Positions 27,875 to 41,134 of a stretch of 64,000 bases of DNA are shown piece by piece (position 1 is the first letter of the stretch; every line of letters begins with the position of its first letter). This DNA is from Candidatus Foliamicus sp. (GTDB lineage Bacteria > Pseudomonadota > Gammaproteobacteria > Steroidobacterales > Foliamicaceae). The stretch lies in NCBI GenBank assembly GCA_965221325.1, contig OZ244880.1; one strand, 5' to 3'. Position numbers and translations under genes: made by a program. The notes below the pieces were generated by a model. The model saw nothing but the letters and a program-made list of their open reading frames with translations, was not told the origin of the DNA and ran no database searches.

Positions 27875-29254
27875 TCAGGCAGCCAGCGCTTGAACGTACC
27901 AGCGCGGCGGCCCGCTGTCGGGCGCCTGTTTGCGGTATGCGCTAAAGCACCGCCCAAGCTCATCCTCCAACAGCCAGTATTCGCGGGCGTTTCGCTCCCC
28001 GCTGCGCCACCATTCCGGCGCTAAGCGCCGGGGTCCCTGCGCCCGCCGCAGGGTCAGCCGTTGGCGCCGCCAGCGAATCCAGGCCGGCGCACCGCCTGCC
28101 GCTGGGGCGGAAGCTTCCACGGGCTCGGCGTCTTCCAGCAACAGCAGCGGCGCGCGCATGGGCTTGCCGTTCGGTCTGAATGATGGATTCTCCGCCGGAC
28201 GCGGGTCCAGGGCGGAAATCAGCCGCCAGCGCCGTTCGGGCAGATAGCTGGCTTCCGCCACTGCAATGCGCACCGCCTCGGCTCCCAACCGGCTGCAAAG
28301 CCGATCCACGAGGCGCGCGAAATCGCCTTCCAGGTTGCCGGCGGAGGCCCCGGAAAGCCAGTCCGCCTGCTCTGCCGTTGCTTCTTCGGCATCGTAAGCA
28401 TGCAGGCTGACCGCGTCGTAGCCAACCCCGCGAGCCATGCTCGGCGGCTTCGCTTGCAGCTTTTCGTGCAGAAGCTCGGCCAGTTGCGGCGCCGGCTGAA
28501 TAAGACGCGCCGTGCGCAAACGATGCGTGAGGCATTCGCCGTCCGAGCGCAGCAGACGCAGTTCGAAGCGCCGCGAACCCATGCCCGCGGCGGACAATTG
28601 ACCGCAAATCCGAACGGCCAATTCAGCAGTCGCCGCGGCAATCGCTTGCTGCAAGACCACGGGGCTATCGAATTCCATGCGGGCCTCGAACCTGCGCGGC
28701 GGCGGCAGATAATCGAGCGGTTCGGGAGCATGGCCTGCGGCCTGCTGCAGGCGCAGAGCCGTCGCGGCGCCAAATCTGGCCTGCAGAGATTCGGGTGCAA
28801 TGCGGCTCAAGGCGCCGATCGTGTGCAGGCCCAATTCCCGCAATACGCTGCAAATTTCGGTCTCCAGCCGCAGCGCTTCAACCGGCCACGCGCCCATCGC
28901 CTCCAGCCCGCTGCCCGGCGCAAGCAGTACCACAGCTTCCGACGCGCCCCGGGTTCCGGCCCAGGCCGCGCCCGGAGTATCCGCAATGCAAACCTGCGCC
29001 GCTTCGCCCCGCCGACGCAACTCGGCCACAACCTCGCCCAACAGTTCGGATTCCCCGCCGAACAGGCCGATGGAGCCGGAAACATCCAGAAACAGGCTGT
29101 TGCCGGGGGCCAGGGCGATCTTCGGCGTAAAACGCCAGCAGTGATGCGCCAACTGCGCCAGGCGCTGCGCCAGCAACCGCGCCGCTGATTCAGCCGGCGG
29201 CGCGGATGTCGCTTGCTGGTGCAGGCGGTGCAGCCAAACGCAAACAATTCTCAT
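27875..29254 (-). CDS. imuB: Y-family-polymerase-like protein ImuB
   Basis: FLDVSGSIGLFGGE and the overall ImuB layout, positioned between imuA and dnaE2. ATG at 29254 (MRIVCVW) would overlap imuA by 65 nt, so the start is uncertain. Confidence 0.8.
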   Translation of the reverse strand: MRIVCVWLHRLHQQATSAPPAESAARLLAQRLAQLAHHCWRFTPKIALAPGNSLFLDVSGSIGLFGGESELLGEVVAELRRRGEAAQVCIADTPGAAWAGTRGASEAVVLLAPGSGLEAMGAWPVEALRLETEICSVLRELGLHTIGALSRIAPESLQARFGAATALRLQQAAGHAPEPLDYLPPPRRFEARMEFDSPVVLQQAIAAATAELAVRICGQLSAAGMGSRRFELRLLRSDGECLTHRLRTARLIQPAPQLAELLHEKLQAKPPSMARGVGYDAVSLHAYDAEEATAEQADWLSGASAGNLEGDFARLVDRLCSRLGAEAVRIAVAEASYLPERRWRLISALDPRPAENPSFRPNGKPMRAPLLLLEDAEPVEASAPAAGGAPAWIRWRRQRLTLRRAQGPRRLAPEWWRSGERNAREYWLLEDELGRCFSAYRKQAPDSGPPRWYVQALAA

Positions 29255-29918
29255 GCTCGCTCCATTCGATGTTCCATTCGCCGGGCGTCCAGCCGGGGGC
29301 CCGCTCAAGACCTATACGCCAGCTTCGCGCGCCCGGCAATTCGAATCCGCGCCAGGCCAGAGTGGAGGGCGCGCTCGGCAAGGGCTCCACGCGCCAGCGG
29401 GTGCGCGCGGAGGTGGCCTCGCGGAGCCTGGCGCCGCGCGCCAGGAAGACCCTCGACCCGCCGCGCAGGGCACGCAGCGACAAACGCCGCGAAGCGGTAA
29501 AGCCATAGTGCCGCTCCACGCCGGGCAAGCAGCCCACCACCGCCAGCAGCCCGGGGCAGTCCAGCGCTTGTTCCAGCGCCCAGAGCAGCTCCCGCTCATC
29601 GCCGGGCTCCACCAGCAGCAGATTGCGGGGGTTCAAACCGATTTCTTCGAAACCCTCGCCGCAGGGCAACCCCCAGCGGCGCGAAGATGCGCGCGTTTGC
29701 ACCCACACCAGACGGCCCGTAGAGGCGCCCGGTAATTCCGCGGCGCAACAGGCAAGCAGCGCCAGCGCGGCAGCCCGACCGCCGCTGCGCCCGCCTAGAA
29801 ACTCGTGAACTCCGGAACGCGCAAGCGTCGCAAGCGGCCAGCTTCGATCCGCTTCCGCACCCGAAACCGCCCGCAGAAGCCGGGGACGGGCGGTCAAGCG
29901 CTCCCTCCACCGGGCCAC
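29190..29918 (-). CDS. imuA: SulA/RecA-like translesion accessory protein ImuA
   Basis: GVHEF..., GRLVWVQTRA and LLWALEQALDCPGLLAVVG match the ImuA pattern. First gene of the cassette. Confidence 0.75.
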   Translation of the reverse strand: MARWRERLTARPRLLRAVSGAEADRSWPLATLARSGVHEFLGGRSGGRAAALALLACCAAELPGASTGRLVWVQTRASSRRWGLPCGEGFEEIGLNPRNLLLVEPGDERELLWALEQALDCPGLLAVVGCLPGVERHYGFTASRRLSLRALRGGSRVFLARGARLREATSARTRWRVEPLPSAPSTLAWRGFELPGARSWRIGLERAPGWTPGEWNIEWSEHENCLRLAAPPAPASDIRAAG

Positions 29919-30854: not shown

Positions 30855-30880
30855 CCGCTTGCTTCTCACTCTGCAAGCGG
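30855..30880. promoter_or_regulatory. Dyad CCGCTTGC-N10-GCAAGCGG in the divergent SDR/gor intergenic region
   Basis: Perfect 8-bp inverted arms read from the sequence. A second small dyad, GGCAT-N7-ATGCC, follows immediately. Confidence 0.25.
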
Positions 30881-30948
30881 CATTGGCCCGATGCCGGGAA
30901 GCGCCAGGCAGGTGTAGGAGAGTCCTGGAGACGTTATCCTTCCGGCCT

Positions 30949-32292
30949 ATGCGGGAATTCGACCTGGTTGTTGTGGGTGGCGGCAGCGGTGGCCTGGCGA
31001 CCGCTCAACGCGCGGCCGAGCGCGGCGCCCGGGTGGCGCTGATCGAGTCGGGACGTTTGGGGGGCACTTGCGTCAACCGCGGCTGCGTACCCAAGAAGGT
31101 CATGTGGCACGCCGCGGAACTGGCGCGCCAGCTTGCCGACTCCCGCGAGTACGGGTTCCATTTGTCCCTGGAGAGCCACGACTGGTCCGAACTGGTGCGC
31201 CGCCGGGAAAGCTACATCCGCCGTCTGAACGGAATCTACGTAGAAAACCTTCGCCGCCGGGGCGTGGAATATGTGGACGGATTCGCAGCATTTTCCGGCG
31301 CGCGGACTATTGCCGCGAACGGCGAGGAGTACGCCGCGCCGCGCATCCTGATCGCCACCGGGGGCGCGCCCGTGATTCCGGAGATTCCCGGGGCGGAACT
31401 GGGCATTACGTCCGACGATTTCTTCGCGCTGGAAAGCTGTCCGCGCAGGGCAGCCGTGGTGGGCGCCGGATATATCGCCGTGGAACTGGCCGGGATTCTG
31501 CGTGGACTGGGCTCGGAGGTAACGCTGCACCTGCGCCGCAAATCGGTGCTGCGGCGTTTCGACGAGATACTCCAACAGGCCTGTCTTGAGGGACTTGCCG
31601 ACGCGGGCGTGCGCATTGAGACGGATTTTTCGCCGACAGCCGTCGCCCGCAGCCAGAACGGACTGCACGTTACATCTTCCCGAGGCGCAAACAGCGGACC
31701 TTTCGATACGCTGCTTTGGGCCGTGGGCAGGCGGCCGCTAACCGACGATCTCGACTTGGAGACGCCTGGCGTGGCCCGCGATGCGCGCGGCGCGATCAAG
31801 GTGGACCAGTGGCAGGAAACCACCGCCCGTGGCGTGTTCGCCCTGGGCGACGTGACCGGTCGTCACGAGCTTACCCCGGTGGCGATCGCCGCCGGCCGAC
31901 GCTGGGCGGATCGGCAGTTCGGCGGCATGTCCGAACGCCGCATGGACTACACAAACATCCCGACGGTGGTGTTTGCGCATCCGCCACTGGGCTCGGTAGG
32001 GCTTACCGAGGCCGAAGCGCGCGACGCACATGGCGATACGGTGCGCTGTTACCGCTCCGAGTTCGTGCCGCTCTACTACGGCATCGCTGCCCACAAACCC
32101 AAGGCGCGCATGAAGCTGGTCACGGTGGGCGAGGAGCAGCGCGTGGTGGGATGCCACGTGGCCGGCCCGGGCGCGGACGAGATGCTGCAGGGTTTTGCCG
32201 TGGCCATCAGGATGGGCGCCCGCAAAGCAGACCTCGACGACACCGTCGCCATTCATCCCACCGCCGCCGAAGAACTCGTGACCATGCGCTAA
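30949..32292 (+). CDS. gor: Glutathione-disulfide reductase
   Basis: FAD motif VVGGGSGGLA, redox-active GGTCVNRGCVPKK, C-terminal HPTAAEELVTMR. Start at MREFDLVVVG. Confidence 0.9.
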   Translation: MREFDLVVVGGGSGGLATAQRAAERGARVALIESGRLGGTCVNRGCVPKKVMWHAAELARQLADSREYGFHLSLESHDWSELVRRRESYIRRLNGIYVENLRRRGVEYVDGFAAFSGARTIAANGEEYAAPRILIATGGAPVIPEIPGAELGITSDDFFALESCPRRAAVVGAGYIAVELAGILRGLGSEVTLHLRRKSVLRRFDEILQQACLEGLADAGVRIETDFSPTAVARSQNGLHVTSSRGANSGPFDTLLWAVGRRPLTDDLDLETPGVARDARGAIKVDQWQETTARGVFALGDVTGRHELTPVAIAAGRRWADRQFGGMSERRMDYTNIPTVVFAHPPLGSVGLTEAEARDAHGDTVRCYRSEFVPLYYGIAAHKPKARMKLVTVGEEQRVVGCHVAGPGADEMLQGFAVAIRMGARKADLDDTVAIHPTAAEELVTMR

Positions 32293-32391
32293 CCCGGATG
32301 AAGCCTTCGGGCATACCGGTGCGGTCCAGACCTGCTGACCGGTGACTGTGAGGGACCTCGGTCGCTGCCCCTGTCTGCGGCACGAAGCCGC

Positions 32392-32427
32392 CGCTATAGT
32401 CGCTCAAAGCTTCGGTGGCGCTATAGT
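32392..32427. repeat. Direct repeat CGCTATAGT x2 (27-bp spacing) upstream of the 481-aa ORF
   Basis: Copies at 32392-32400 and 32419-32427. Each contains a TATAGT -10-like hexamer. Confidence 0.3.
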
Positions 32428-32462
32428 GGCCTGTACGGAGCCGATCAGCTGGAGTCCAAGTG

Positions 32463-33908
32463 ATGTTCATAGCACGAAATGCTGGTGAGGTGCTGGCGGA
32501 ACACACTGGAGGAAAGACGGAGGACCCCTTCGGCATGCAAACAGGAGTTCGTCCTCTGTGGGCGATGCAGGTCGGCAAGCCGCATCCAACGGGTATCAAG
32601 CTAAACGTCTTGGTTCGCTTGCCACCAAGCGACAAAATCGACAATCAGATTCGCGGAGTCGTCGACGTACCGGGCCACCCTTTTGGAGACGAAGAGAGAT
32701 GCTACTTGGCAAAAGTACTTATCGAGGCTGTTGACGATATTCCGCAATGCAAATTTGAGTATCAAGTAGTGGACTGGGTGGCGACTGAAGGGGGCAAGGG
32801 CATCCAAGTCGCCCAGTGCCGCCCAATAGCGGTCTCAGTTGGTCGAGATTTCGTTAACTTAAGGGTGTTTGAGCCACCAGACATTCAAGAGCCTCTTGAG
32901 AACAGCCAGATAAGTGCAGAGCAGCAAGACGAGTGGATTCGCGAATACGCTGCTAACAGGTACTGTCGGTACCTGACGAGGCAGGAGTTGAACCAGCGTT
33001 TTCAAGATCTGTTGGTGAACATCCAAGTTCTCACACCATCCGGACGATTGGGGTTGAGCACCGACGAGACTTGGTACCGCCTGCTGCAGCACGTTATTGA
33101 CGAGATGCAATTCAGGGGTGAGCCGCCAACCGCTTCTAACCATCACCCTCATGTGCAAAGGTCCCGACCGTTTTTCGACGGTGAATTCTGCCGGAAGGCG
33201 GCGAAAGTGGTTGCTGCGAGTTCCACTGATCAAGACGTGCTCGTAAAGTACGGCAAGCGCGAGCACATGTATTCACTATTCCAGAGGGGCATCGTGTATC
33301 TGAACCCTGCCACCTGGTACAGCGCGTCCGACCACAATCAGGCTATCGAAGACAACGAACTGGCTATTGGCTTCAAGGGTGGATTCATAAGGACCACCCG
33401 TCCTCTGCAGTTTTACGACAGGAACAATGCGCCACCGATGGAAATTGCCGCCCGCGCCGTAGGATTTCGAACGATATACGAGCTTCCAGAGTTGCATAGC
33501 GACCAATTTTGCACTGCCACCATACAAGCACCTACGGACTACTGGATGTTCTGCATGGCCGATATTCTCGACCCAAGGCTCTTCGCCGACTTCCAAGCCG
33601 ATTGCTGCCTCATCATCAAGCGTAGGCCGTTCGCGGAACGCCTGTTGCGGACTGCCGCGGAGCAGCTGACCAATGAAACGTGCTACTTCGACCGCGTCCA
33701 GTATGTGGATCCTCTAGGTGCTTGGCCTGCTAGCACACACGTAACGAATTCCATCCCGCTCCACATGACAAAGGTGTTTCGTTACGCCTATCAGAGGGAG
33801 GCCCGCTTCGCCATTGTCCCCAATGAAGGCCGAGATGACCTGCAACCAAGAGAAATCGAAGTCGGATCAATCTCGGATATTGCCGATCTCGTGCCGCTCA
33901 TGGGCTAA
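32463..33908 (+). CDS. Hypothetical 481-aa protein; C-terminal half weakly DUF2971-like
   Basis: GGAG lies 8 nt before ATG 32463. Intact long ORF in AT-richer DNA. The C-terminal segment LVKYGKREHMYSLFQRGIVYLNPATWYS...EDNE ... YWMFCMAD ... VFRYAYQREARFAIVP resembles the DUF2971 layout, recognised by eye only. Confidence 0.6.
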   Translation: MFIARNAGEVLAEHTGGKTEDPFGMQTGVRPLWAMQVGKPHPTGIKLNVLVRLPPSDKIDNQIRGVVDVPGHPFGDEERCYLAKVLIEAVDDIPQCKFEYQVVDWVATEGGKGIQVAQCRPIAVSVGRDFVNLRVFEPPDIQEPLENSQISAEQQDEWIREYAANRYCRYLTRQELNQRFQDLLVNIQVLTPSGRLGLSTDETWYRLLQHVIDEMQFRGEPPTASNHHPHVQRSRPFFDGEFCRKAAKVVAASSTDQDVLVKYGKREHMYSLFQRGIVYLNPATWYSASDHNQAIEDNELAIGFKGGFIRTTRPLQFYDRNNAPPMEIAARAVGFRTIYELPELHSDQFCTATIQAPTDYWMFCMADILDPRLFADFQADCCLIIKRRPFAERLLRTAAEQLTNETCYFDRVQYVDPLGAWPASTHVTNSIPLHMTKVFRYAYQREARFAIVPNEGRDDLQPREIEVGSISDIADLVPLMG

Positions 33909-34338
33909 TAGGGCGCATACGCCATACATGACCGGGCTGGTGCTGCGCCTCGCGCAATTCACCCGTGCCCCGGTCAATGACCTCGTCGTTTGGGCCGCGC
34001 ATTCCACGAACAGCTTCTCGCCCGCACGTTAGTCTTGGCGCATGACCATGTCCAGCCGGCCTAGCCAGGCGCGATTTTGCTCGCAAAACCAACTGTATTG
34101 GTAGCCGTCGCGGCACGACGACCGATGGATACTCCTGCCGCAGCAGGAACAACTCCGCACCCTTGCTCTGGAGTCAGTGGAAAGCTTCCAATGGACTGGG
34201 TGACCGCTTTCGATCGAAATCAGTGGCAAACTTCATCTGAAATACGCAGGCCCGCCGAAGCTGGCTAGTCCCAGATGTAGTGAACCCGCGCTGCTTCCTG
34301 CCCTTTTGGGCCTGACGTATACTGTCCGCAAGAACAAG

Positions 34339-34632
34339 ATGCCCCAAGCTCGGGCGATACGCCTAACCGCGCCGGATGGCGGGGCGTTATACAAGAGGTC
34401 ATCGACGCGGCGCGACGCCGCAAGGGGGACCGATGCCCATTGGACTGAAGGTCGAGGAACGATCGACCCTATCGCCAGTGCCGTTCGCATCGCGCGGACC
34501 GCGCCCGGCGAAGAAGAACAGCTTGTCGATACGTGCAAGCGCAAGGGAGGCAGGTCCCGAACGCAGAAGATGGGCCTTGAGCGACGGCGGGAAATCGCGA
34601 GAGCCGCCGCCGCATGGCGGGCCAGTACTTGA
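34339..34632 (+). CDS. Small basic protein with C-terminal GGRSRTQKMGLERRREIARAAAAW motif (hypothetical)
   Basis: ATG 34339 follows a TATACT hexamer. The C-terminal motif resembles the GG-K-x-R-x3-L-x2-E-R-x-EIARKAA-x-ARW tails of small bacterial proteins. Stop lies 13 nt before the next ORF. No clear RBS. Confidence 0.3.
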   Translation: MPQARAIRLTAPDGGALYKRSSTRRDAARGTDAHWTEGRGTIDPIASAVRIARTAPGEEEQLVDTCKRKGGRSRTQKMGLERRREIARAAAAWRAST

Positions 34633-34645
34633 CCGGCGCATAGCT

Positions 34646-34921
34646 ATGAAATCCGATAATTGGGCCATCATGGGCGCCGAGGTCGCCATCTTCGCCTTGA
34701 ATATCGCGGCTATGACGGTGCTGACGCTGAGTACAAGCAACCGGCTCGACTGGCTTGAGGCGTCGGTCAACAGCCGCCTGGACTCCATCGACAGACGGCT
34801 GGATTGCTTCAAGGTCGAGCTTGTTCACCTACGCAATGATGTCGGCACGCTCGCCGAGCGTGTCTCACATATCGAAGGGCGGCTGGCCATAGATCGAGCA
34901 GGCGGGCGCGCCGCACCGTGA
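34646..34921 (+). CDS. Small membrane-anchored coiled-coil protein (hypothetical)
   Basis: MKSDNWAIMGAEVAIFALNIAAMTVLTLS (TM) is followed by heptad-like NRLDWLEASVNSRLDSIDRRLDCFKVELVHLRNDVGTLAERVSHIEGRL. Stop overlaps the methyltransferase GTG (GTGA at 34918-34921). No clear RBS. Confidence 0.35.
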   Translation: MKSDNWAIMGAEVAIFALNIAAMTVLTLSTSNRLDWLEASVNSRLDSIDRRLDCFKVELVHLRNDVGTLAERVSHIEGRLAIDRAGGRAAP

Positions 34922-36516
34922 AGTTTCAACCGGACTCGCTGTACTGCGGGGATTGTCTCGACATCATGCGAGCGTGGCCCGACGGCTGCATCGATCTCTG
35001 CTATCTCGACCCGCCGTTCAACTCCAAGACGGACTACAACATCCTGTTCGGGCAGGATCGGGCGCGGACCAATGGCGGCAAGTTCGCCCAATTTGTCGCG
35101 TTCGAGGATACATGGATGTGGGACGATGCCGCTCAGGACCGCGTCGATTCCATTGAGCGCGCAGTCGCGCATCCGGCGCATAAGATCGTCAAGGGTCTGC
35201 GCTACGCGATTGGCGACTGCGGCATGCTCGCCTATCTCTCGTACATGGCCGAGCGCCTGGTCGAAATTAGGCGCGTTCTGAAGCCGACAGGGAGCGTCTA
35301 CCTGCATTGCGACCCCACTGCGAGTCATTACCTCAAAGCCGCATTGGATGGCGTGTTCGGAGCCAAGTGCTTCCTGAACGAAGTAAGCTGGCGACGCACA
35401 ACGACGAAGGGCGACTATCGACAGGGCGCGCTCAACTGGCCGCGCGTACGCGATGTGCTGCTGCATTACGCAAGCGATCCGCGCGGCGGCGGGCGAATGT
35501 TCCGGCAGCCGTTCACCGAATACGATCCCGCCTACATCAAGAGTCACTACTCCATGGTCGAGCCGGACACCGGTCGGCGTTATCGGTTGGACAATTTGAC
35601 CGCGCCAGGCGCGGGCTCACGTGGGCACCCGAAGTACGAACTCATGGGCGTCGAGCGGCACTGGCGATACAACGCCGAGAAAATGGCCGATCTGATCGCG
35701 GCGGGTCGCGTCGTCCAGACCGCGCCCGGTCGGGTACCAGCCTACAAACGATACCTCGACGAAATGCCCGGCGTGGCGGTGGGCGACGACTGGAGCGACA
35801 TCAAACCGATCAATTCTCAGGCAAAGGAACGCTTAGGTTATCCGACTCAAAAGCCCGAGGCGCTGCTGAGGCGTGTCATAGAGGCATCCAGCAACGAAGG
35901 GGACATCGTTCTGGACCCGTTCGCTGGATGTGGCACCACGGTGGTTGCGGCCCGCAATCTTAAGCGTCGTTTCGTCGGAATTGACATCTCGCACTTCGCT
36001 ATCGACATCGTTCGGGAGCGCCGATTGCAGGACAAAAGCATCCCGATCAACGGCTTCCCGGTGGATCTGCCGAGCGCCGAGATGTTGGCGCGGGAGGTCC
36101 CGTTCGAGTTCGAGAAATGGGCGATCACACGGATACCCGGCATGGTGCCGAACGCCGTGCAGATTGGCGATGGTGGTATCGACGGTCGCGGCATAATCCA
36201 CGGAGACGGCTCGCTTGTGCTCGCCCAGGTGAAGGGTGGGCGCTCATTCCAGCTCGGTCACGTCCGGGACTTCCGACACGTTCTAACGCGCGAGCAAGCC
36301 GCCTGCGGCGTGTTCACGACGCTCCGACCTGTCACGTCGCCCAAGGCGAAGGCGGAAGCGAAAGGCGCCGGATATCTCAAGTTCGGTGCGAACCGCTATC
36401 CGGCGGCGCAGTTGTGGTCGATTCAGGACTATTTTCAGGAGCGTCTCCCGATGCTCCCACCTTTGGCCGACCCGTACACCGGGAAGGCCATGCAACTAGA
36501 CATGCTAGCGCATTAG
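34918..36516 (+). CDS. Beta-class N6-adenine/N4-cytosine DNA methyltransferase fused to a C-terminal Mrr-like PD-(D/E)xK nuclease domain
   Basis: Motif IV DPPFN at the N-terminus (GDCLDIMRAWPDGCIDLCYLDPPFN) and motif I GDIVLDPFAGCGTTVVAA after a long insert give beta-class order. C-terminal FEFEKWAI...GDGGIDGRGII...LAQVKGG...GVFTT matches the Mrr_cat pattern. Confidence 0.85.
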   Translation: MKFQPDSLYCGDCLDIMRAWPDGCIDLCYLDPPFNSKTDYNILFGQDRARTNGGKFAQFVAFEDTWMWDDAAQDRVDSIERAVAHPAHKIVKGLRYAIGDCGMLAYLSYMAERLVEIRRVLKPTGSVYLHCDPTASHYLKAALDGVFGAKCFLNEVSWRRTTTKGDYRQGALNWPRVRDVLLHYASDPRGGGRMFRQPFTEYDPAYIKSHYSMVEPDTGRRYRLDNLTAPGAGSRGHPKYELMGVERHWRYNAEKMADLIAAGRVVQTAPGRVPAYKRYLDEMPGVAVGDDWSDIKPINSQAKERLGYPTQKPEALLRRVIEASSNEGDIVLDPFAGCGTTVVAARNLKRRFVGIDISHFAIDIVRERRLQDKSIPINGFPVDLPSAEMLAREVPFEFEKWAITRIPGMVPNAVQIGDGGIDGRGIIHGDGSLVLAQVKGGRSFQLGHVRDFRHVLTREQAACGVFTTLRPVTSPKAKAEAKGAGYLKFGANRYPAAQLWSIQDYFQERLPMLPPLADPYTGKAMQLDMLAH

Positions 36517-36566
36517 ACTGGCTAAAATGCCTGACATATATTGTTGATTGCGCGCCAATTGACGGC

Positions 36567-36879
36567 ATGAACAAGCTATCCGAAACCAAGCGCACCACAA
36601 CCTGACGATGCGCAGGGGATGCGCCGATTTATCCGCCTCACCAACGCGTTCAGCAAGCGAGTCGAGAAGCACACGACGATGCGGAGCCTCTACTTCGTGC
36701 ATTACAATTTCTGCCGCTTTCACCAAACGCTGAAGGTCGCGCCCGCGATGTCGGCCGGACTGAACACCACCTTGCGAGACTACGAATGGATCGTGGTTCT
36801 GATCGACGCCGCAGCGCCGAAGGCTCGGAAGACCGGCCCGAAGCCCGGAAGCGGCGGACGGCACCGTAAAGCAAACTGA
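36567..36879 (+). pseudogene. Internally deleted DDE transposase remnant (IS1-like C-terminus)
   Basis: MNKLSETKRTTT-stop (36567-36605) resembles the N-terminus of a transposase family. ORF 36619..36879 (RLTNAFSKRVEKHTTMRSLYFVHYNFCRFHQTLKVAPAMSAGL) matches only the last ~85 aa. The catalytic core is missing. Confidence 0.6.
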
Positions 36880-37484
36880 TGCACTATCCGCGTAAGCGTT
36901 TCGGAACCGGATTTGAACGCTAGCGTACGCACTTGGTCGCGCTCTTGGCCGGAGGCATACTGGAAGCGCCAAGTGTCGTTGCGTAACCAGTGAGGAACTC
37001 GGGTATCCACTTTCGGCATCCGGGATGGAGTCTACAGCCGCTGATTGGGTCGCACGGGTCGGTGCTTCCACTTTAGCGGGCGCGAGCGTATTTCATGGGC
37101 GTGCGCATTCTTCAGCTGCCATTAACAGCACCGCTTCGCGTCCCGTGCGCTGGCGCCGGGCGAGATTCGGTCCATATTCGGAAAGACGCTCAGACATCGG
37201 AACGTGCGGAGCACGGCCCGTTACACCCGCGATCCGGTCAACCCACCTGCGCGCTTGGCCAAGAGCCTTTGGGTGGATCTAGCGAGTGACGGCGAGTTGG
37301 CGTATTGCAGGGGGCTGCATCTTCGCTGCCTAGACTCCGTACCGCCGATGGCGAAAGGGACGCTGATAGTAGTAGAGCAGCCTTATGCAGCCAGCACTCA
37401 CTAAACAAATAATACCAGTGGTTGACGGGGACTGGGCTGGCGAGCGGGGCACGGGCATCTAAATTTTATCCTCCCGCAATCTTG

Positions 37485-38381
37485 TCATGCCGGCCACCAA
37501 TCACTCTTCGATTTGACGGTCAAAGAAAGGACTACGTCATCATCTCCCTTAACGCTTGAGATAAACCAGTCGTATCGTGGTGCACTCTTCTCAACCAAAG
37601 GACACACGTAGAATGCAAAAAATGTTGCCTTGTTTTCTGCTCCCTGAACGGCGGTCAGGCTTGCGTCGTCTTCGATTAGGTCTACGCAATCTTCTGTGAG
37701 TCCGCCAAATGCGGGAGATTTGATCAGTTCCGCTAGCACATATTTCAAGCCAGGTTCGTGTACAAAGCTCATTACTTTTGGATCAACTTTCACCCCAGAG
37801 ACCGTACGGACACGGCAGATGAATATGCCTTTTGGTTGAATGGCTTCGCCTAAAGATACGCAGTATTGATTGTCTGGGATGTCCTCCTCCATTCGATTCT
37901 GCGGACGAAGGAAGGCTTCACTTCGACTGATGTGAATCCAACCAAGCATCTGCAGAAAAATCTCAGGTTTGTTGTTCAATCTCGTAGGCACAAAGCCGTG
38001 GAGGTTTTTGGCGCTACTCACGAAGGGGTTCTCGGTGCGGCCCGGCAAATCCGTTCCGGAAATATGGAAGTTCCCGTCGGCATGCCAGTGCATTTTCACA
38101 TCTTGCGTGTTGGCTTGCATCATGGTACGCCAAATGTTGTTGCCTAAATATTCGATCGCTATGCCTCCCAGCGAAGCGATATGGTTGTTGACCAAAAATT
38201 CATATTTGGACGGTTGCCCGGCAAGATCCCTCTTTTCGATGAAGCATCGTTTGTTGGGAGCATCGACGTATTTCGGCGGCGCCATTACCGCGAGGCTTTC
38301 ACCTTGATCGCCGATGACAAATCTAAACGCCTTGAACGTGTGTCCCTCATGTTCAAATGCGATAACGCCATTCGTTTCCAT
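37485..38381 (-). CDS. Hypothetical 298-aa protein, no recognisable family
   Basis: GGAAGGA RBS 8 nt before the ATG. Intact ORF in the most AT-rich DNA of the window. No motif I can name. Confidence 0.55.
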   Translation of the reverse strand: METNGVIAFEHEGHTFKAFRFVIGDQGESLAVMAPPKYVDAPNKRCFIEKRDLAGQPSKYEFLVNNHIASLGGIAIEYLGNNIWRTMMQANTQDVKMHWHADGNFHISGTDLPGRTENPFVSSAKNLHGFVPTRLNNKPEIFLQMLGWIHISRSEAFLRPQNRMEEDIPDNQYCVSLGEAIQPKGIFICRVRTVSGVKVDPKVMSFVHEPGLKYVLAELIKSPAFGGLTEDCVDLIEDDASLTAVQGAENKATFFAFYVCPLVEKSAPRYDWFISSVKGDDDVVLSLTVKSKSDWWPA

Positions 38382-38569
38382 TTGCGAATCCTTCCGACTA
38401 AACCGTATCGGGCTCTTTGGAAGCCGATTGCATCTGAGAATCTGGAGCCATGAGACAGTGTAACAGTTATTCCTCGGAGGAACGGGAACGGGTGGTCCAG
38501 CCTGTCGTATGCGATGCAGACGTGGAGCATGTCCTCGGAAAATTCAAACTGCGCGCTGAACCACTGTAG

Positions 38570-38870
38570 AGATTCCAGGACTCAGTGCGTGAGCTGTCGT
38601 TGACGCCGTCCAAAGCTAAGGCAAACCTGAGCTACCTCAACAGCGCCGTTCTGTCCGCCCTGCGTGATCTGCGCGTTGGCTCGGTCGCCCGAGTGTCACC
38701 GGCATTGCCTTAATCTCCCGCACTTACGGGCGCAGAAAGCCGAGCGGCGAACCTGAGTCATGAGATGCTGCGCAACATGTTCGGCTACGCCATCGCGTGG
38801 GGCCCTTGGCGAGAAGCCGTCGGCAACCCAATTGAGGGCATCGGACACTTCAACCGCGCCTCGTTCAATT
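38570..38870 (+). pseudogene. Tyrosine-integrase N-terminal (SAM-like domain) fragment with in-frame stop
   Basis: One frame reads RFQDSVRELSLTPSKAKANLSYLNSAVLSALRDLRVGSVARVSPALP*SPALTGAESRAANLSHEMLRNMFGYAIAWGPWREAVGNPIEGIGHF. The ..LPALG..v..vtr.dv.. and ..AN..l..l..mF..A..WG....NP...i..f pattern is integrase-like. TAA at 38711-38713. Similarity ends near 38870 and no catalytic domain follows. Confidence 0.45.
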
Positions 38871-39607
38871 CGGTTGACCAGAGCTCTCGCAAGCTCCTTG
38901 TTAAGGTACTCACTGGGCGTAGAGGGCATTCCAACATTTTCTGGTGTGTAGCTGGCAACTCTGCGGATATTCTCGAAATCCACGCCATCAAAATGGTTGC
39001 CTAAAATGCGATAGACCTCATTTTCTGGAATGTGCTTTACTGTGCTTACCCACTCTATAGGAAACCCAAGCATACTAACGATGTCGGACAGTTTAAGGTC
39101 GAGGAACTTGAATCCTCCTGTTGCGACAGTGCGTCTTGGACAGGAATGATTTGGAAAAGCGTTTGCACACTTGAGGACAATACGCGCAAGCTTACCGAGA
39201 TGCTCAAGGCAACAATCAACAACATCTCGGTGGAGAAGCGCTTTAGGAACCGCCTGTTTATTTCCAGCAAATCTATAGCTCCAAAGCAAATTCCCTTCAC
39301 AATCTTTACTCGTTGTCCCAACCAAGGAAACTCGTCCTTCTTTCTGCGAAAAATTCCTCAACTCCAAAAAATACTTCATTCCGGCATCTTCCCTCATTTT
39401 CTTTCGGCGTTTTACCCACCATTCCTTGAATCCAGGGACCCTTCGCATTTCTTTCTGAAGCAAAAAAGTTACACTTCGGGCAGCCGATAGAAATGCGTTA
39501 AATTCATATGTGAAGTTCTCCCCATTCAGCGCTCGTAATCTGCGCGCAAAATTTTCGGCTTCGAGAATTTTTTCTTCAACCAACAAAAGGCTGTTTAACT
39601 GGGCCAT
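38696..39607 (-). CDS. Hypothetical ~303-aa protein; the 3' ~58 codons run antisense through the integrase remnant
   Basis: ATG 39605-39607 follows a purine-rich stretch (the ORF-track start at 39628 is TTG). The N-terminal helical region has FNAFLSAARSVTFLLQKE and LELRNFSQKEG. The AT-rich body ends near 38880, but the reading frame continues into GC-rich DNA to the stop at 38696. Confidence 0.5.
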   Translation of the reverse strand: MAQLNSLLLVEEKILEAENFARRLRALNGENFTYEFNAFLSAARSVTFLLQKEMRRVPGFKEWWVKRRKKMREDAGMKYFLELRNFSQKEGRVSLVGTTSKDCEGNLLWSYRFAGNKQAVPKALLHRDVVDCCLEHLGKLARIVLKCANAFPNHSCPRRTVATGGFKFLDLKLSDIVSMLGFPIEWVSTVKHIPENEVYRILGNHFDGVDFENIRRVASYTPENVGMPSTPSEYLNKELARALVNRIERGAVEVSDALNWVADGFSPRAPRDGVAEHVAQHLMTQVRRSAFCARKCGRLRQCR

Positions 39608-39760
39608 TCTGCTCTCTTCCTCGATCAATCCCAGAAGACTTTATCGTCGTATGGAGTGTTCCGGGAATAGTTGACACCATCGCGCCTCAAAGTGAGGTTG
39701 CTTCAAAGGCTTCGGGGAGTGACACCGCCAAGATGGCTATTGTCCATGTCGTCTCCGGCG

Positions 39761-40213
39761 TCAGTAGCCCATGTCCAGAACCTGGGCATCTGCGGCCAGT
39801 TTGTCAAGCGCCCGGCGCCGGCCCGCATCCGTCGTGTTCTTGTAGCGCATGATGGCGTCGGAATGGACGCGGCGGTGCGTTCCGACCTTGTGAAAGGGGA
39901 TGGTGCCCGATTCGAGAAGCTTGACGAGGAAGGGGCGCGAGACATTGAGTAAGTCGGCCGCCTGCTGGGTGGTTAGCTTGGTGTCCTTGCGAATCACTGC
40001 GACCGAGCTGCCAGACGCTATACCCTCAAGAGCTTCCAGCAGCATGTCGCCGGCCGATGCCGGCAGCTTGATTGCCTCGTCTCCGTGAGCGTCGCTGACA
40101 AGGAGCGATGGGGCGGGGTCCGCGCCCAGCAAAGCGCGCAGGCGTTCACTTGATTCTTGTGCGATCTCGGCATCCGCTTTCGAAGGAAGGATTGAGTGTG
40201 TCTGCATGTTCAT
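39761..40213 (-). CDS. Excisionase-family (HTH_17/MerR-like) DNA-binding protein, antitoxin-type
   Basis: LTTQQAADLLNVSRPFLVKLLESGTIPFHKVGTHRRVHSDAIMRYK is the excisionase-type HTH. The 150-aa layout ending LDKLAADAQVLDMGY resembles antitoxins paired with PIN toxins. Confidence 0.65.
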   Translation of the reverse strand: MNMQTHSILPSKADAEIAQESSERLRALLGADPAPSLLVSDAHGDEAIKLPASAGDMLLEALEGIASGSSVAVIRKDTKLTTQQAADLLNVSRPFLVKLLESGTIPFHKVGTHRRVHSDAIMRYKNTTDAGRRRALDKLAADAQVLDMGY

Positions 40214-40260
40214 TATTCATCCCCGCGCCTCTGCGCGGCTTCACGGCCACCCTAGCGGCT

Positions 40261-40321: not shown

Positions 40322-41134
40322 TTAGCCGCCGCGCGGACTCAGCAGTTCCTGGGTGTCGGGGCGCTGTCCATGCCAGATTGCAAAGCTTTCGGCCGCTTGT
40401 TCCACCAGCATTCCCCATCCGTCGTGGATCGAACGTGCCTTTCCCTGGCGCGCCCAGGCCGCAAAGGCCTCGGCTGCCGGCCCGTAGGCCAGGTCGATGC
40501 AATGCGCGCCTGCGGCCGCCGAATGATCAATCGTAGGCGCGGTGCCCGTCATGCCGGCGGAACTGGCATTGATCACCAGATCTGCGCGCGGCGGAGTCGC
40601 CGCGCCCTGTTCGGCCACCTGGATGGCGCCCAGGGGTGCGAAGCGGCGCGCCAGGTCCAGTGCGCGGTCGCGGGTGCGGTTGACCAGCGTGATCGAGGCG
40701 ATGTTGGCTTCGAACAAGGCGGGGATCAAGCCACGCGCAGCGCCGCCGGCTCCGAGCAGCAGCAGCGTTGCGCCCGCGAGTTCGAGGCCGAGATTGCAGC
40801 GCAAGTGGCGGAGCAGGCCGGAGCCGTCGGTGTTGTCGCCATGAATGCGATCCTCATCACCGACTGTGAGGGTGTTGGCAGCTCCCGCCAGCCGGGCCCC
40901 GGAACCGAGGGAGTTGCTGAGTGCCGCCGCCTCCTCCTTGAGCGGCACGGTGATGTTGCATCCCCGCCCGCCTTCCTGCGCGAAGCGGCTCACTGCTTCG
41001 GCCAATAAGCCTTGGCGGACCTCCACGCGCCGGTATTCGAGGGCAATGCCGAGTTGCGATGCAAAGCGGCGATGAATTTCGGGCGAGCGGCTGTGACCGA
41101 TCGGATGGCCCATTACGCAGAAGATTGCCGGCAT
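40322..41134 (-). CDS. aroE: Shikimate dehydrogenase
   Basis: FCVMGHPIGHSRSPEIH N-terminal motif, NITVPLKE, GAGGAARG NADP site, 270 aa. Confidence 0.9.
   Translation of the reverse strand: MPAIFCVMGHPIGHSRSPEIHRRFASQLGIALEYRRVEVRQGLLAEAVSRFAQEGGRGCNITVPLKEEAAALSNSLGSGARLAGAANTLTVGDEDRIHGDNTDGSGLLRHLRCNLGLELAGATLLLLGAGGAARGLIPALFEANIASITLVNRTRDRALDLARRFAPLGAIQVAEQGAATPPRADLVINASSAGMTGTAPTIDHSAAAGAHCIDLAYGPAAEAFAAWARQGKARSIHDGWGMLVEQAAESFAIWHGQRPDTQELLSPRGG

Follow-up and report, generated by a model that had tools for sequence, protein, structure and literature searches.

A stand-alone 481-residue protein with a DUF2971-like, putatively ADP-ribosyltransferase-like domain at the edge of a low-GC island

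Introduction

Here, we describe a gene for a 481-residue protein located at the left edge of a low-GC island in a 64-kb stretch of DNA from Candidatus Foliamicus sp. (64,000 nucleotides, in the following the window). The island is flanked by a glutathione-reductase-like gene and a shikimate dehydrogenase gene and also contains a restriction-modification (RM)-type gene downstream of the one described here (Table 1). We propose that the protein is a stand-alone sensor-effector with an ADP-ribosyltransferase (ART)-like toxin domain, and put the probability of this whole chain, defence role and ART chemistry included, at about 0.5. An earlier reading of the same DNA, made from its letters alone (the sequence-only reading), had described the protein as an orphan with a DUF2971-like C-terminal half that could be either a single-gene defence protein or a phage-derived gene. 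We will first describe the gene, its relatives and the predicted structure of its product, then the relation to DUF2971 and to known ARTs, and finally the genomic contexts, the proposed function and its alternatives.

Table 1. Features of the gene, its product and the surrounding island, in window coordinates
Feature	Position	Strand	Basis or remark
Glutathione-reductase-like gene, left flank	30859-32292		Pfam
Low-GC island, ~8 kb	32293-40250		GC 0.50-0.61 inside, ~0.65 outside
CGCTATAGT direct pair	32392-32427 (copies 32392-32400 and 32419-32427)	+	27 bp start to start
Shine-Dalgarno-like GGAG	32451-32454	+	8 nt 5' of ATG 32463, sequence read directly
Coding sequence, 481-residue protein	32463-33908 (stop codon counted)	+	Read from sequence, translation
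N-terminal alpha/beta domain, residues ~29-125	32547-32837	+	Particular to the long-form subfamily
Helical domain, residues ~152-252	32916-33218	+	Common to the whole superfamily, not in DUF2971
C-terminal DUF2971-like, ART-like domain, residues ~254-481, putative effector	33222-33905	+	hhalign, PHROG bridge, secondary structure
K262-Y263-G264, candidate ART motif I equivalent	33246-33254	+	End of the domain's first strand (259-264)
Q444-R445-E446-A447-R448, candidate ART motif III (QxE)	33792-33806	+	Start of strand 446-453
RM-type gene, N6_N4_Mtase with C-terminal Mrr_cat fusion, 532 residues	34918-36516	+	Pfam
Shikimate dehydrogenase gene, right flank	40322-41134	-	Pfam

The gene and its upstream region

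Read directly from the sequence, the open reading frame (ORF) is intact, with its start codon at ATG 32463 and its stop codon at 33906-33908, and an NCBI record identical over all 481 residues is annotated 'hypothetical protein' from Candidatus Foliamicus sp., a gammaproteobacterium of the order Foliamicales. A GTG (32460) lies one codon 5' of the ATG, and ATG 32535, with GGAGG 11 nt upstream, may be an alternative start; the first ~20-28 residues of the protein are predicted to be disordered in the AlphaFold2 model, and residues 1-28 are polar. The CGCTATAGT pair is found 36-71 nt 5' of the start codon. This motif has just two copies in the 64-kb window, where 0.10 are expected, and two copies were reached in one of 100 shuffles. 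Judged by its letters, the pair could be a promoter -10-like (TATAGT) or an operator element, both being candidate roles. Consensus scans of positions 32250-34950 found no full sigma-70 consensus promoter, and consensus scans likewise gave no intrinsic terminator 3' of the gene. The 1-kb GC content across the gene (32-34 kb) is 0.589 and 0.555, compared with roughly 0.62-0.69 in the flanking DNA. The sequence-only reading had reported an intact ORF with GGAG 8 nt upstream, two repeats spaced 27 bp apart and AT-richer DNA, all of which are present as described, and the peptides it had quoted (LVKYGKREHMYSLFQRGIVYLNPATWYS, YWMFCMAD and VFRYAYQREARFAIVP) are all found in the translation.

Relatives and their distribution

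The protein has relatives and in this sense is not an orphan. Proteins that are 25-60% identical to it form 89 clusters (90% identity), most of them over the full length, and HMMER, run exhaustively over 1.84 billion representatives, yielded 769 of them (50%-identity clusters) at E<=1e-3. Most of these 769 are ~305 residues long and align only to query residues ~154-480; they are detected by phmmer from the window protein itself at 1e-23 to 1e-44. We refer to proteins with the N-terminal domain of the window protein as long forms (48 sequences, including the window protein) and to those consisting of the ~305-residue core as short forms. The conserved unit of the family is residues ~154-481 and not the C-terminal ~240 residues; the conserved module begins near residue 154 and not near 240. 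This ~305-residue core is spread over hundreds of bacterial lineages.

A genome scan with a restrictive pattern returned 98 relatives from very diverse phyla, including Proteobacteria (Stenotrophomonas, Pseudomonas, Vibrio, Aeromonas, Pantoea and Acinetobacter), Acidobacteriota, Omnitrophota, Planctomycetota, Nitrospirota, Bacteroidota and one lineage of the candidate phyla radiation. The N-terminal ends of sampled relatives fall into three types: the window-type domain (91 proteins), an unrelated extension of 140-180 residues (13) and no extension (about 100). Judging from these sequences, the N-terminal extensions of the family are swappable.

Domain architecture and predicted structure

AlphaFold2 prediction from the family alignment gave a confident model of the 481-residue protein, with a predicted local distance difference test score (pLDDT) of 90.0 and a predicted template modelling (TM) score of 0.84. 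The model is composed of three parts, an alpha/beta domain (residues ~29-125), a helical domain (152-252) and a mixed alpha/beta C-terminal domain (254-481). The first of these comprises strands 43-52, 61-69, 98-109 and 114-121 and helix 76-88, with block-mean pLDDT values of 87-97. It is a candidate sensor or regulatory module, and Pfam, PDB and Foldseek searches gave no match for it. The helical domain is made up of helices 152-164, 173-187, 202-217 and 240-252, and residues R179, N186, E214 and R218 within it are invariant in the family alignments. In contrast, a true DUF2971 protein, as modelled by AlphaFold2 (pLDDT 91.9), has only one short helix ahead of the first strand.

Searching PDB sequences with family profiles revealed no relative of the core family. 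The long-form profile did give a homeodomain-like PDB match inside the conserved helical domain: at residues ~160-176 (window 32940-32990) the profile REFNENRYLTERRRQQL resembles REYAANRYCRYLTRQEL of the engrailed homeodomain (helix 1, loop and start of helix 2). A single copy matches at E about 0.6 (11-12 bits), the E of 4e-4 stems from the tandem construct 6m3d_C, and the match was set aside as probably due to chance.

A remote relationship to DUF2971

DUF2971 (PF11185) proteins were retrieved with a bait peptide composed of DUF2971 motifs and used for retrieval only; the identity of the resulting set rests on precomputed PF11185 labels, source names and uniform phrog_1762 matches. The first alignment of this set consisted mostly of fragments and was rebuilt from full-length PF11185 proteins. 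With hhalign, the core family aligned to the fragment-based profile at E 4.8e-4 over 162 columns (probability 32%) and to the full-length profile at E 0.015 over 166 columns (probability 3%), and the long-form profile aligned to the PF11185 proteins at E 0.14. The alignments are collinear, span 162-174 columns within residues 254-454 and pass through all of the blocks that the sequence-only reading had placed, by eye, in the order found in DUF2971. The real hhalign score of 24.4 exceeded all 100 column permutations (mean 14.5, standard deviation 2.6) and 98 of the 100 block permutations. Cross-family scores of profile hidden Markov models (HMMs) against sequences reached up to 14 bits in an agreeing register, with reversed or shuffled controls at most at 4.5.

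A second line of evidence comes from PHROG profiles, which bridge the two families. Among 59 core-family proteins, 40 match phrog_26561 (best 3.4e-11), 55 match phrog_13198 and five match phrog_1762 (best 1.5e-5), and among 54 DUF2971 proteins all match phrog_1762 and one matches phrog_26561 (1.7e-4). Searched as a single sequence, the window protein has one weak match to phrog_26561 (E 0.07).

The third line is secondary structure. When the two AlphaFold2 models are compared along the sequence-only alignment, three-state agreement is 66%, versus 32% +/- 7% in slid registers; none of the slid registers in sets of 249 and 471 reached 66%, and the real value lies about five standard deviations above them. 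Both proteins present the same order of elements, namely strand-helix-strand, an insert, strand-helix-strand, strand, short strand, 6-residue helix and strand. In the two models, the spacing of three element triplets is nearly the same, and that of the short strand, 6-residue helix and strand is identical. Order and spacing thus match except at the insert after strand 2, which is strand-rich in the window protein and helical in DUF2971. Shared sequence features include L-x-K-Y at the first strand, a Cys-containing strand, V-x-Y and K-x3-[WY]-x-Y-[EQ]-x-E-x-R.

At the level of single residues, 10 of the 16 invariant DUF2971 positions are kept or conservatively replaced in the window protein. 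The residues kept are K24 (K262 here), Y25 (Y263), C117 (C364), C139 (C382) and Y159 (Y414), followed in the late block by K183 (K437), W187 (Y441), Y189 (Y443), E192 (E446) and R194 (R448). E190 is changed to Q444, turning ExE into QxE, and N49, D50, P51, F52, D53, C54, W128, H130, Y131, H135 and G137 are lost or rewritten. The window family also differs from DUF2971 in having a conserved helical domain of ~100 residues in front and, in the window subfamily, a further N-terminal domain of ~100 residues. As the hhalign comparison with its permutation null, the PHROG bridge and the secondary-structure agreement are independent lines, residues ~254-454 are likely a remote homolog of DUF2971. The term 'DUF2971-like' is valid at the superfamily level and not in the sense of membership.

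Candidate ADP-ribosyltransferase residues and comparison with known enzymes

DUF2971 has been predicted to be an ART of a modified H-Y-E type that resembles DarT and AbiGi, with a poorly conserved motif I His (PMC12522546), and Lys is the commonest residue at this His position in the DUF2971 set used here. ARTs are known to vary in their triads, which may be H-Y-[EDQ], R-S-E or H-H-h; the catalytic residues of DarT, R51, Y71, M78, H119 and E160, are a non-canonical set (PMC9967889). By sequence alignment only, the candidate catalytic set of the window protein would consist of K262 at the His position, F374, F377 or Y414 as motif II depending on the register, and Q444-x-E446. K262-Y263-G264, which align with DUF2971 K24-Y25, are invariant in alignment A1; in the core family, K occupies position 262 in 93% of sequences and Y or F position 263 in 86%. 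Q444-x-E446-x-R448 align with DUF2971 E190-x-E192-x-R194, and Q444, E446 and R448 each show 98-100% conservation in the two family alignments. Among the invariant residues are K262, Y263, G264, D297, E299, D376, F377, Y414, P417 and E446.

DarT is the single-stranded DNA thymidine ADP-ribosyltransferase toxin of the DarTG toxin-antitoxin and antiphage system, and it has been described as the family closest to DUF2971 (PMC12522546). It is also the best, sub-threshold, structural match of the DUF2971 model: the top three Foldseek matches among 350,542 PDB chains are Thermus DarT 7omy, 7omx and 7omw (E 0.075-0.10, target-normalised TM score 0.42-0.45, ~250 columns). Both DarT and the window protein are proposed toxic effectors from defence contexts. 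In contrast to DarT, the window protein is more than twice as long, with added domains, and its model has no direct sequence or Foldseek match to DarT. Unlike in DarTG, no DarG-like macrodomain antitoxin lies beside the gene in the window or is found in the Pfam calls of the 11 long-form contexts. The guanine-specific DNA ARTs pierisin, Scabin and ScARP (R-S-[Q]xE) belong to an R-S-E clade with an STS motif, of which no equivalent was identified in the window protein, and no sequence or Foldseek similarity to the window protein was found for them. The QxE motif occurs in these guanine-specific enzymes.

Genomic contexts of the family

Among 72 short-form loci, no neighbour cluster occurs in more than three, and there is no conserved partner gene. 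Of the flanking genes, only about one in six is co-directional and tightly spaced. Together, the absence of a recurrent neighbour and the small number of such genes indicate that the gene works alone, in line with the earlier description of a gene standing by itself next to an RM-type gene, here the methylase-Mrr fusion downstream.

Long forms are usually found in the company of RM, defence or mobile-element genes. Counting the window, RM or defence genes are direct neighbours of the gene in seven of 11 long-form contexts, and defence or mobile-element genes adjoin it in 10 of the 11. The neighbours include TIR_2 and AAA_16 STAND ATPases in one context; an MmeI-type methylase, SNF2, AAA_15/21 and DISARM-like MZB and PLD genes in another; an MmeI-type methylase, HigB and UvrD/DEAD helicases; a type I RM system with Abi_C and PDDEXK_4; SLFN_AlbA_2, a kinase and PP2C; a 1653-residue Mrr_cat_2-ResIII protein; RelB; and FRG/TPR proteins with IS1595 elements. 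Insertion sequence (IS) clusters also occur, and one homolog is flanked by three DDE transposases. In a further context (L091, 7279-9389), the homolog P0046 begins 8 bp after an AcaB-family gene in a conjugative module with a relaxase, a type IV secretion system coupling protein and TrbI, a setting of a different kind from the RM-rich islands. On three related contigs (L001-L003, 9241-9990), a 249-residue gene without annotation precedes the homolog P0010 by 10 bp; it is not conserved elsewhere and could be a partner particular to this lineage. A 181-residue ORF, present downstream in the window and in L004, was tried as a partner and rejected, the lengths matching by chance with no sequence similarity.

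The neighbours of short forms were tallied over 149 ORFs in 42 loci and comprise Cas9, TIR (two), GajA, AbiEii, AbiH, type IIG RM (two), a C5 methylase, a PstI-type restriction endonuclease and many housekeeping genes. At L008 1575-4577 (minus strand), in an alphaproteobacterial metagenome-assembled genome, about 285 bp separate a short-form relative from a type II Cas9 gene (PADLOC Cas9 1.3e-76). Short forms annotated as hypothetical are carried by three plasmids, from Agrobacterium, Methylobacterium and Azospirillum. No relative was found by tblastn in 50,697 phage records, and eight were found in 2.9 million viral contigs, so that the idea of a phage-derived gene is weakly supported at best.

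Proposed function

The 481-residue product would be a stand-alone cytoplasmic protein of three modules, whose C-terminal domain is most likely an NAD+-dependent ART. The latter assignment follows from the prediction that DUF2971 is a DarT/AbiGi-type ART and from its one tested member, Aristaios, a single-gene abortive-infection system. Aristaios is a 316-residue DUF2971 protein with an ART-like model that acts as a single-gene antiphage system (PMC11381338) and is reported to interfere with phage transcription (PMC13064643); the lactococcal Aristaios is Abi-like and, like the gene described here, stands alone in variable DNA. In the long-form subfamily a stand-alone gene recurs near defence or mobile-element genes, a context like that of Aristaios. 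In the proposed model, NAD+ would be held by K262 and Y263 on strand 1, and the catalytic glutamate would be E446 of QxE, where the late strand starts. The protein's own N-terminal and helical domains might keep it off until a phage cue releases the effector, which would then ADP-ribosylate nucleic acid or an essential protein and stop growth of the phage (and host), that is, cause abortive infection as for Aristaios and DarT. Nucleic acid is the leading guess for the target, by analogy with DarT and with the QxE motif of guanine-specific DNA ARTs.

The single-gene defence role had already been put forward from the letters alone, and what now speaks for it is context, namely that the gene stands alone and that long forms usually lie beside RM, defence or mobile-element genes. 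Single-gene defence candidates that resemble ARTs and have DUF2971 and DarT as relatives are a known kind; what is new here is the presence of an additional conserved helical domain, of QxE alongside rewritten signatures and of N-terminal domains that can be swapped. A more far-reaching version, which we offer tentatively and consider doubtful, is that the ~305-residue core (helical domain plus K-Y...QxE domain) defines a new, widespread single-gene antiphage family of nucleic-acid-modifying ARTs with interchangeable N-terminal cue sensors, one that would comprise at least 769 50%-identity clusters and have no model in Pfam, NCBIfam or PADLOC v2. If the proposal is true, a large, taxonomically broad and as yet unnamed family joins the ART-type immune effectors DarT and Aristaios/DUF2971. 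The system is compact, consists of one gene and is easily testable, with K262 and E446 giving clear point-mutant predictions, and the variation of N-terminal modules could show by what means toxins of this kind sense infection when they have no antitoxin as a partner. It would also mean that DUF2971-like proteins extend far past Pfam detection and are missed by defence-island surveys based on Pfam or PADLOC.

Several findings weigh against this interpretation. The PF11185 HMM misses the family: hmmscan gave no match, even at E<=10, for any of 58 proteins (the window protein, 47 other long forms and 10 short forms), and by the Pfam criterion the window protein is not a member of DUF2971. The DUF2971 assignment of the sequence-only reading therefore stands as remote homology, seen by profiles, PHROGs and secondary structure, and not as a match to that model. 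Moreover, the hhalign probabilities are low (3-32%) and weaker with the cleaner DUF2971 profile. The NDPFDC signature is lost or rewritten in the window protein, the short-form core holding a D-P-S-L-N version, MWSHY..HKG is replaced by RLFxDFxAD in an uncertain register, and the register of the candidate motif II differs between two alignments; given these lost signatures and this difference in register, NAD+ binding may not be preserved. The structural match of the DUF2971 model to DarT is suggestive and lies below the Foldseek significance line. Foldseek with the full window-protein model gave nothing significant in PDB (best E 0.76) or BFVD (best E 0.30), so the ART fold is reached only via DUF2971. 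There is no match of the window protein to any Pfam, NCBIfam or PADLOC model, and no family member is present in PADLOC-DB v2. Since the short forms are within reach of a phmmer search with the window protein, a Pfam, NCBIfam or PADLOC v2 model covering a member should match the window protein as well, and these collections thus appear to cover none. No antitoxin-like partner recurs in the 72 loci, and the restraint of toxicity is purely inferred. Finally, the short-form neighbours are, in a qualitative tally, a mixture of defence and housekeeping genes.

Alternative explanations

The residue changes also feed a different reading, which we regard as unlikely, in which the DUF2971-like scaffold supports another chemistry, such as that of an NADase, a sensor of nucleotides or NAD-derived signals, a 2'-phosphotransferase-like enzyme or a nucleic-acid binder. 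Lys at the motif I His position, QxE in place of ExE and the loss, in an uncertain register, of MWSHY..HKG as possible carrier of the motif II Tyr would all fit, as would the lack of an ART match for the window model and the fact that the ART activity of DUF2971 is itself predicted. However, K262, Y263, G264, Q444, E446 and R448 hardly vary among hundreds of divergent sequences, which speaks for an active site under constraint, ART chemistry is tolerant of such substitutions, as seen from the H-Y-[EDQ] triads and the non-canonical residues of DarT (PMC9967889), and the His is poorly conserved in DUF2971 too (PMC12522546).

A rather improbable alternative keeps the fold and assigns it to mobile elements, with an ART-like toxin serving plasmid or integrative and conjugative element addiction, inter-element competition or anti-defence. 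It draws on P0046 in its conjugative module, the homolog flanked by three DDE transposases, the short forms on Agrobacterium, Methylobacterium and Azospirillum plasmids, the eight relatives on viral contigs and the two PHROG families that match the core. Most copies, however, are chromosomal and beside RM or defence genes rather than replication or transfer genes, and carriage by phages is rare (none in the 50,697 records and eight in the 2.9 million viral contigs). Defence genes themselves often ride on mobile elements, so this context does not tell the two readings apart.

That the resemblance to DUF2971 is no homology at all, and the protein a new fold sharing short motifs by chance, we hold to be quite improbable. 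No library model and no PDB or BFVD fold matches the protein, and hhalign gives probabilities of 3-32% and a P of only ~0.015 with the cleaner profile; against this, the hhalign permutation null, the reciprocal PHROG matches (1.5e-5 and 1.7e-4) and the secondary structure share one register. A secreted effector or toxin acting on a eukaryotic host or competing bacteria, like the Legionella DUF2971 effector candidates, is very improbable: although about 18% of DUF2971 proteins are predicted effectors (PMC12522546), the 11 long-form contexts have no secretion-system or immunity-gene neighbours, no partner gene is conserved, and a signal-peptide-like N-terminus was not seen in the polar, predicted disordered residues 1-28.

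The surrounding island

The gene is the first of the low-GC island, and the methylase-Mrr fusion gene begins 1 kb 3' of it, with Pfam domains PF01555 (3.3e-38, residues 25-366) and PF04471 (5.9e-05, residues 413-483). Between the two lies a 91-residue ORF (34646-34921, plus strand), in which MKSDNWAIMGAEVAIFALNIAAMTVLTLS... leads into a coiled-coil-like tail. Its stop codon (TGA) and the start codon of the methylase-Mrr gene (GTG, 34918) overlap in the letters GTGA, and the sequence suggests a small membrane protein that is translationally coupled to this gene. Further downstream, an 86-residue ORF (36619-36879, plus strand; ...NAFSKRVEKHTTMRSLYFVHYNFCRFHQTLKV...) resembles, by eye, the C-terminal remnant of an IS transposase and has no Pfam match. 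Two minus-strand ORFs (37485-38381, 298 residues, and 38696-39628, 310 residues) lie in the stretch of lowest GC content (0.50-0.54); searches of Pfam and of PDB sequences gave no match for either, and both may be further island cargo. An HTH_17 (AlpA/excisionase-type) gene (39761-40213, minus strand) at the right edge adjoins the shikimate dehydrogenase gene. No integrase, tRNA or convincing flanking (att-like) direct repeats were found for the island, which may be a decayed integrative element.

Upstream of the island, ORFs of 477 and 242 residues with overlapping ends (27875-29918, minus strand), which have no Pfam match at E<=0.01, resemble by eye an ImuB/ImuA-type mutagenesis cassette. 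A 26-nt inverted repeat, 92% complementary, has its arms 4.5 kb apart at 31837-31862 and 36325-36350, inside the glutathione-reductase-like and methylase-Mrr genes, and so brackets the gene for the 481-residue protein.

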